Positions 44,523 through 45,682 of a stretch of 64,000 nucleotides of DNA are shown here, one piece after another. How positions within the stretch are numbered: the stretch's first letter is position 1; each line of letters starts with the position of its first letter. The stretch lies in NCBI RefSeq assembly GCF_058153355.1, contig NZ_CM177019.1; one strand, given 5' to 3'. Under the pieces are notes generated by a model that worked only from the letters and a program-made list of their open reading frames with translations, did no database searches and was not told the DNA's origin. The translations under genes and the position numbers were made by a program.

Positions 44523-45371
44523 ATGGCGACATACCTTATTGGCGACGTTCATGGTTGTTACGATGAACTGATCGCATTGCTGCATAAAGTAGAATTTACC
44601 CCTGGGAAAGACACCCTCTGGCTGACAGGCGATCTGGTCGCGCGCGGCCCTGGTTCGCTGGATGTTCTGCGCTATGTGAAATCCTTAGGCGACAGCGTAC
44701 GTCTGGTGCTGGGCAATCACGATCTGCATCTGCTGGCGGTATTTGCCGGGATCAGCCGCAATAAACCGAAAGATCGCCTGACACCGCTGCTGGAAGCGCC
44801 GGATGCCGACGAGCTGCTTAACTGGCTGCGTCGCCAGCCTCTGCTGCAAATCGACGAAGAGAAAAAGTTGGTGATGGCCCACGCCGGGATCACGCCGCAG
44901 TGGGATCTGCAGACTGCCAAAGAGTGCGCGCGCGATGTAGAAGCGGTGCTGTCGAGCGACTCCTACCCCTTCTTCCTTGATGCCATGTACGGCGATATGC
45001 CAAATAACTGGTCACCGGAATTGCGGGGGCTGGGAAGACTGCGGTTTATCACCAACGCCTTTACCCGTATGCGCTTTTGCTTCCCGAACGGTCAACTGGA
45101 TATGTACAGCAAAGAATCGCCGGAAGAAGCCCCTGCCCCACTGAAACCGTGGTTTGCGATTCCTGGCCCCGTCGCTGAAGAGTACAGCATCGCCTTTGGT
45201 CACTGGGCATCGCTGGAGGGCAAAGGTACGCCGGAAGGTATTTACGCGCTGGATACCGGCTGTTGCTGGGGCGGTTCATTAACCTGCCTGCGCTGGGAAG
45301 ATAAACAGTATTTTGTCCAGCCGTCGAACCGGCATAAGGATTTGGGCGAAGGAGAGGCGGTCGCGTCTTAA
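44523..45371 (+). CDS. apaH: Bis(5'-nucleosyl)-tetraphosphatase (symmetrical) ApaH
   Basis: 282-aa ORF starting [45 protein letters not shown] (metallophosphatase GDVHG motif); its C-terminal tail ...LGEGEAVAS differs slightly from K-12 as I recall it. Confidence 0.95.
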
Positions 45372-45682
45372 ATCCCGTCGAGCATAAAATCTAATGCTCC
45401 TTTAATCAAAGTTCGGTGCGCGCTGGCATCGCAAAATTTCGTTCCCAGCGTGTTAACTGGAACAGTTGCAGTCTCATGCGTCATGAGCACATATTCTTTG
45501 CCGTCTGCCAGTAAAAGGATTGGGTTAAGCCGTTCTGGTGGGCGAATATGGCTAAATCGTTCAATAGGTGTTAATGGAATAACGATACGGCGATTAATCT
45601 CACCAATAATGTCGCTGGTAACATCGATAACAAAGGGAAACGCGGCGTTCCTGCCGCGACTGCGGTATACCGTAAATTGCAT
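45368..45682 (-). CDS. ccdB: CcdB-family toxin homolog (chromosomal ccd system)
   Basis: 104-aa [42 protein letters not shown]...[10 protein letters not shown]; collinear with F-plasmid CcdB (MQFKVY...RRMVIPLA...LMFWGI) from memory; located 2 nt downstream of ccdA in the folA-apaH gap. Confidence 0.85.

Follow-up and report, generated by a model that had tools for sequence, protein, structure and literature searches.

An intact ccdO157-type ccdB allele of Escherichia coli, with aspartate opposite the Trp99 of F-plasmid CcdB, probably encodes a functional gyrase toxin

The ccdO157 islet of the E. coli O157:H7 chromosome has already been described in reviews (PMC2654758, PMC5543033, PMC10305079). 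In reviews citing Wilbaux et al. 2007 and Gupta et al. 2017, DNA gyrase is given as the target of the chromosomal O157 CcdB protein, and the degradation of its CcdA is attributed to Lon. Reviews further indicate that F CcdA neutralises the chromosomal O157 CcdB while the reverse does not hold. According to one review, O157 CcdB is less toxic than F CcdB and has a five-fold lower affinity for gyrase (PMC5543033). Structural work on the chromosomal CcdB of V. fischeri (CcdBVfi) is also relevant here. In its complex with GyrA14, GyrA Arg462 is bound by Asp99Vfi and not by Thr103, the interface being the same but the interactions different (PMC5086665; bioRxiv 10.1101/2025.07.24.666505). Among CcdB proteins, Trp99 is not a conserved residue, and CcdBVfi has Thr103 (bioRxiv 10.1101/2025.07.24.666505).

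The DNA analysed here (the window) is a stretch of 64,000 nucleotides in which a ccd operon lies between two core genes. The relevant features are as follows.

44523..45371, plus strand: apaH, core gene, left flank, convergent with ccdB
45368..45682, minus strand: ccdB, intact 104-aa ORF for a CcdB-family gyrase toxin of the ccdO157 type; the allele is WP_032183189.1
45368..45400, minus strand: 3′ end of ccdB, last 10 codons plus stop, translating to [10 protein letters not shown]
45685..45918, minus strand: ccdA, 77-aa ORF for a CcdA-family antitoxin
45919..46003, minus strand: ccdA-folA spacer, presumed ccd promoter region, containing the right-hand junction between islet and core genome as placed by alignment to K-12
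46004..46483, minus strand: folA, core gene, right flank

The locus is the known chromosomal ccdAB (ccdO157) toxin-antitoxin islet of E. coli, located between apaH and folA. It sits where K-12 has a REP-containing apaH-folA spacer, and the DNA of the ccdB locus is 100% identical to that of E. coli 2020CK-00188, in which the gene is annotated as "CcdB family protein". The ccdA gene ends 2 nt upstream from ccdB, on the same strand and in the same operon, and identical genomes list it as a CcdA-family antitoxin; its product matches the NCBIfam CcdA model with an E value of 1e-09, a match that falls under the F-type equivalog cutoff. Of 5426 complete E. coli genomes, 2024 have a ccdB gene at the apaH-folA site, in every case on the chromosome. 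The window allele is a rarer variant: gene identity of at least 99% is found in 13 of the 2024 ccdB-carrying complete genomes.

Inspection of the islet borders yielded a few additional observations. Adjacent to the islet (45340..45371), 6 nt are inserted in apaH compared with K-12, and its product has 282 rather than 280 aa. The TTAA sequence at 45368..45371 is common to the stop codons of apaH and ccdB. The possibility that this overlap constrains the last codons of ccdB was considered and rejected, since the stop codons alone overlap and the same protein tail is kept in other genera and on plasmids. On the folA side, a sigma-70-like candidate site (45977..45950, minus strand) matches 9 of 12 consensus positions. 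Scanning the surroundings of the ccd operon for promoters and terminators gave consensus-level matches only, at a frequency no higher than in shuffled sequence.

The window protein matches the Pfam family PF01845 over its full length (E value of 6.8e-31; residues 2-103 on positions 1-101 of the 101-position model). Against the F-type NCBIfam equivalog NF010262 it scores 60.5 bits, below the cutoff of 147. Judged by these sequence models, the protein is a member of the CcdB family that lies outside the F-type subfamily. Among solved proteins the closest by sequence is V. fischeri CcdB, with an E value of 1.5e-16, compared to 7e-11 for F CcdB. An AlphaFold2 model built from a 146-sequence alignment (pLDDT 91) has the CcdB/MazF-type fold, with a C-terminal helix spanning residues 87-102. 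Its best match in the PDB is 4ely_C, from the CcdBVfi:GyrA14Ec complex (TM 0.87/0.92, rmsd 1.3 Å), followed by F CcdB; the top 16 matches are CcdB in every case, with TM values of 0.79-0.92. The 45368..45400 segment encodes the tip of the C-terminal helix, with residues Asp98, Phe99, Asp102, Gly103 and Ile104.

This segment had been singled out in a preliminary description of the locus, which held that the protein contains no Trp, ends in LDGI and has Asp opposite Trp99 of F CcdB. Translation of the 104-aa ORF confirmed the first two points. The third is borne out by the alignment of the C-terminal helix to that of F CcdB, which is free of gaps and pairs Asp102 with Trp99, Gly103 with Gly100 and Ile104 with Ile101. 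Both Trp99 and Asn95 of the F-type protein are absent from the window CcdB, their columns being occupied by Asp102 and Asp98, respectively. The same description had allowed for an aromatic residue turning up at the gyrase-contact position; the structure-aware comparison put none there.

Trp typically makes up ~1.5% of the residues in proteins. At this frequency, ~21% of 104-aa proteins are expected to be Trp-free. In addition, 114 of the 120 nearest homologue clusters (defined at 90% identity) lack Trp. For both reasons, no significance was attached to the lack of Trp in the protein as a whole. A Trp-free protein of such length being unremarkable, the one point of interest is the W-to-D difference at the contact position.

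The conservation of the C-terminal tail bears directly on the meaning of this difference. Essentially all of the complete proteins in the 120 clusters end in x-D-G-[IVF]. For a closer view of the lineage, the sample comprised 97 non-Escherichia members of 104 aa, with 53-74% identity to the window CcdB, from Enterobacter, Klebsiella, Salmonella, Citrobacter, Dickeya, Pectobacterium, Xenorhabdus, Photorhabdus, Yersinia, Morganella, Pantoea, Serratia and others. Asp98 is present in all 97 proteins, Phe99 and Asp102 in 96 each and Gly103 in 95. With its tail (DFMLDGI) and its length, the window CcdB fits the motif of this 104-aa enterobacterial lineage, D-F-x-x-D-G-[IVF]. An LDG[IF] tail is also found on plasmids, namely an IncFII plasmid and a 4.9-kb plasmid of Citrobacter and the conjugative plasmid pGDT4 of Yersinia pseudotuberculosis. 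An interpretation of the Asp-type tail as the hallmark of domesticated copies on chromosomes was discarded, as the lineage also occurs on IncFII and small plasmids. Within Escherichia, the E. albertii CcdB orthologue carries A96G and D98N, both at sites with hardly any other variation in the lineage. Since D98 is the residue presumed to bind Arg462, the E. albertii allele may be a weakened one.

The wider family was represented by an alignment of 133 sequences (131 full-length representatives of 50% clusters, the window CcdB and F CcdB). In this sample, which was drawn from the 150 sequences nearest to the query, with the F-like cluster lying outside it, the Trp99 column holds Thr in 50 sequences, Gln in 25, Ser in 17, Asp in 12 and Trp in 2, one of the two being F CcdB. 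Opposite F Asn95, Asp is found in 127 of the 133 sequences, and Gly100 is kept in 127 as well. A separate search with F CcdB recovered 107 clusters of the 101-aa F type; Trp99 is found in 70 of these, Arg in 36 at the same position, and Asn95 in 88. The 36 clusters with Arg are mostly from Salmonella and have FRGI or FRGV tails corresponding to the pSLT-type variant. In a review, the Salmonella pSLT-type CcdB is given as devoid of anti-topoisomerase activity.

Taken at the sequence level, these distributions identify Asp98 as the residue conserved family-wide and Asp102 as a lineage-specific one. Trp99 is a peculiarity of the F-type lineage, essential there, with no corresponding requirement in the family, and its absence from the window protein is the normal, conserved signature of the 104-aa CcdB lineage, not the sign of a broken copy. 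The premise that Trp is required at the contact position turns out to be wrong for this lineage; the closest solved protein, V. fischeri CcdB, has Thr there. Since CcdB lineages recognise GyrA Arg462 by different residues, the presence of Trp99, though essential in F CcdB, is no valid criterion of function throughout the family.

By position, Asp99Vfi corresponds to Asp98 of the window CcdB. We propose, with a probability of about 0.85, that the window ccdB is an intact ccdO157 toxin allele whose product recognises GyrA Arg462 through the family-wide Asp98, probably together with Asp102, and does so without Trp99 stacking. As with other CcdB proteins, the C-terminal helices of the dimer would enter the GyrA dimer in its opened state; there Asp98, probably helped by the lineage-specific Asp102, would hold Arg462 with no F-style stacking of Trp99, and the cleavage complex would stay trapped until CcdA removes the toxin. 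The assignment of Asp98 to this contact is modelled on V. fischeri Asp99, with Asp102 as its putative partner. That the window allele poisons gyrase via GyrA, and that it is toxic, are both expected by analogy with the 95%-identical O157 allele.

The preliminary description had offered two explanations for the missing tryptophan. One, a divergent interaction surface, is supported and has in fact already been published for the V. fischeri protein, in which Arg462 binds the counterpart of Asp98 (PMC5086665). The other, attenuation or decay through replacement of Trp99, is not supported: Asp occupies the position in 96 of 97 members of the 104-aa lineage, plasmid-borne proteins included, and Trp is confined to the F type. 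Moreover, the O157 allele has the same LDGI tail and is reported as a gyrase-targeting toxin, though a weaker one than F CcdB (PMC5543033). Some attenuation of the O157 allele relative to F CcdB is real, whatever its cause.

A separate question is whether the window allele is attenuated for reasons other than Asp102. The ccdB genes of the window and of O157 differ by 6 nonsynonymous and 2 synonymous nucleotide changes, the corresponding figures being 0 and 2 in ccdA, 0 and 24 in apaH, and 1 and 15 in folA. Thus, within E. coli, ccdB is under relaxed constraint and ccdA, apaH and folA are conserved. Synonymous divergence from O157 is far lower in the ccd islet (4 changes in 549 nt) than in apaH (24 in 849) or folA (15 in 480), which suggests a younger age for the islet than for its flanks, or a more recent exchange. 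In the course of this comparison, FolA of the O157:H7 strain Z852 was seen to carry W47R relative to the window and K-12 proteins.

Disrupted copies of ccdB exist in other genomes. In strain G12, ccdB has a 13-bp deletion in codons 61-65 and is annotated as frameshifted; in APEC E18006 a +1 T insertion is found at codon 40. In both strains ccdA is intact. In E. coli 2017-02-2CC, a 71-nt remnant of ccdB is left after truncation by an insertion element, beside an IS1096 passenger TnpR gene. Approximately 261 of the 2024 ccdB-carrying genomes fall in a 90-95% identity band. All seven genomes sampled from this band gave a 302-nt match, consistent with the 13-bp deletion, which was read directly in one of them (G12). 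Reportedly, the 2009 study of Mine et al. found an inactive toxin in ~29% of variants and neutral evolution of ccdB.

These data are relevant to an alternative interpretation, namely that the window CcdB is a decaying toxin, attenuated or inactive and on its way to pseudogenisation, with the antitoxin alone being kept functional. The relaxed constraint on ccdB, the frameshifted or truncated copies that coexist with an intact ccdA and the degeneration of ccdO157 within E. coli described in the literature (PMC2654758) all speak in its favour, as does the lower toxicity of O157 CcdB reported in reviews; with five residues separating the window protein from the tested O157 allele, toxicity may have been silently lost. 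The allele itself is full length and keeps every near-invariant position of the lineage, and an HMM made from the non-Escherichia lineage scores it at 163.9 bits, above the toxic O157 allele (161.3 bits). The five residue differences (window to O157) are G10S, E28V, H45R, A59V and T78A. Two of them involve consensus states retained by the window protein: Gly10 is found in 94 of 97 lineage members and is replaced by Ser in O157, and position 28, which is Gln, Asp or Glu in 94 of 97, is acidic in the window protein and a derived Val in O157. In the gyrase-contact loop of V. fischeri CcdB, Asp27-Asn31, its counterpart is Asn31. Relative to O157, the differences at positions 10 and 28 are reversions to the consensus, and the other three (45, 59 and 78) affect variable positions. 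Finally, with Asp102 the protein shows the conserved residue, not a lesion. On balance, we consider it quite improbable that the window copy is decaying. The earlier suggestion of decay among chromosomal ccd copies holds for ccdO157 in E. coli, where frameshifts, deletions and relaxed constraint are seen in other parts of the gene, but residue Asp102 has no part in it.

A second alternative concerns the role of Asp102, which could serve mainly in the recognition of CcdA, and its specificity, rather than in gyrase binding, and so explain why cross-neutralisation between the F and the chromosomal systems works in one direction only. That F CcdA neutralises chromosomal CcdB and not vice versa, as related in reviews, speaks for this explanation, and the distribution of the residue fits it, Asp102 being lineage-specific whereas Asp98 is family-wide. 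The antitoxins differ as well: the cognate CcdA encoded in the window (45685..45918, minus strand) terminates with ...EYRSF, whereas F CcdA terminates with ...ENRDW. The differing C-terminal aromatic residue of CcdA, along with the toxin helix tip, might be related to the one-way neutralisation. However, the helix tip belongs to the gyrase interface in both F CcdB and CcdBVfi, and a role in CcdA recognition is compatible with one in gyrase binding, the two not being mutually exclusive. For these reasons, a function of Asp102 chiefly in antitoxin recognition seems unlikely to us.

Going further along the line of the preferred reading, in which Asp98 and probably Asp102 take hold of Arg462, one can tentatively envisage that the near-invariant Asp102 forms a salt bridge with GyrA Arg462. 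This would constitute a third solution to gyrase recognition, besides the Trp stacking of F CcdB and the Asp99-only contact of V. fischeri CcdB. As part of the same proposal, the window allele, with G10 and an acidic residue 28, would be a stronger toxin than the O157 allele, whose attenuation would be explained by the derived S10 and V28. We view this extended scheme as possible, though doubtful.

In practical terms, the ccd islet of the window genome should be treated as a probably functional gyrase-poison/antidote pair and not as a relic. The feature is an ordinary one and already known, as the toxin-antitoxin islet has been described and a structural explanation for the missing Trp is available in published work on the nearest solved homologue. 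Beyond correct annotation its importance is small.

Among characterised systems, ccdO157 of O157:H7 (Wilbaux et al. 2007; Mine et al. 2009; Gupta et al. 2017) is the closest relative, having the same apaH/folA site, gene order and spacing. Its CcdA protein is identical (WP_000125566.1), the genes differing by 2 synonymous changes, and its CcdB is 95% identical, with the LDGI tail in common. The 104-aa lineage also includes the chromosomal ccd system of Dickeya/Erwinia chrysanthemi (Saavedra De Bast et al. 2008), with a CcdB in Dickeya zeae that is 58% identical and ends in IDGI. It comes from another genus and another genomic site, and its CcdA, unlike that of O157, has been reported to neutralise F CcdB. 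The chromosomal CcdB of V. fischeri (PDB 2KMT, 3JSC, 4ELY, 4ELZ) is the closest solved homologue by both sequence and fold and likewise has no Trp at the W99 position; it shares ~35% identity with the window CcdB, is 105 rather than 104 aa long and ends in AAIDFLITGI, with Thr103 where the 104-aa lineage has the near-invariant Asp102. F-plasmid CcdB (PDB 1VUB, 3VUB, 1X75) has the same fold, the Gly-Ile C-terminus and 36-37% identity in common with the window protein, as well as, according to the literature, the gyrase target. The two differ at the contact surface: in F CcdB Trp99 stacks on Arg462, in addition to Asn92 and Asn95, whereas the window CcdB has Asp102, Gly95 and Asp98, respectively, at these positions.
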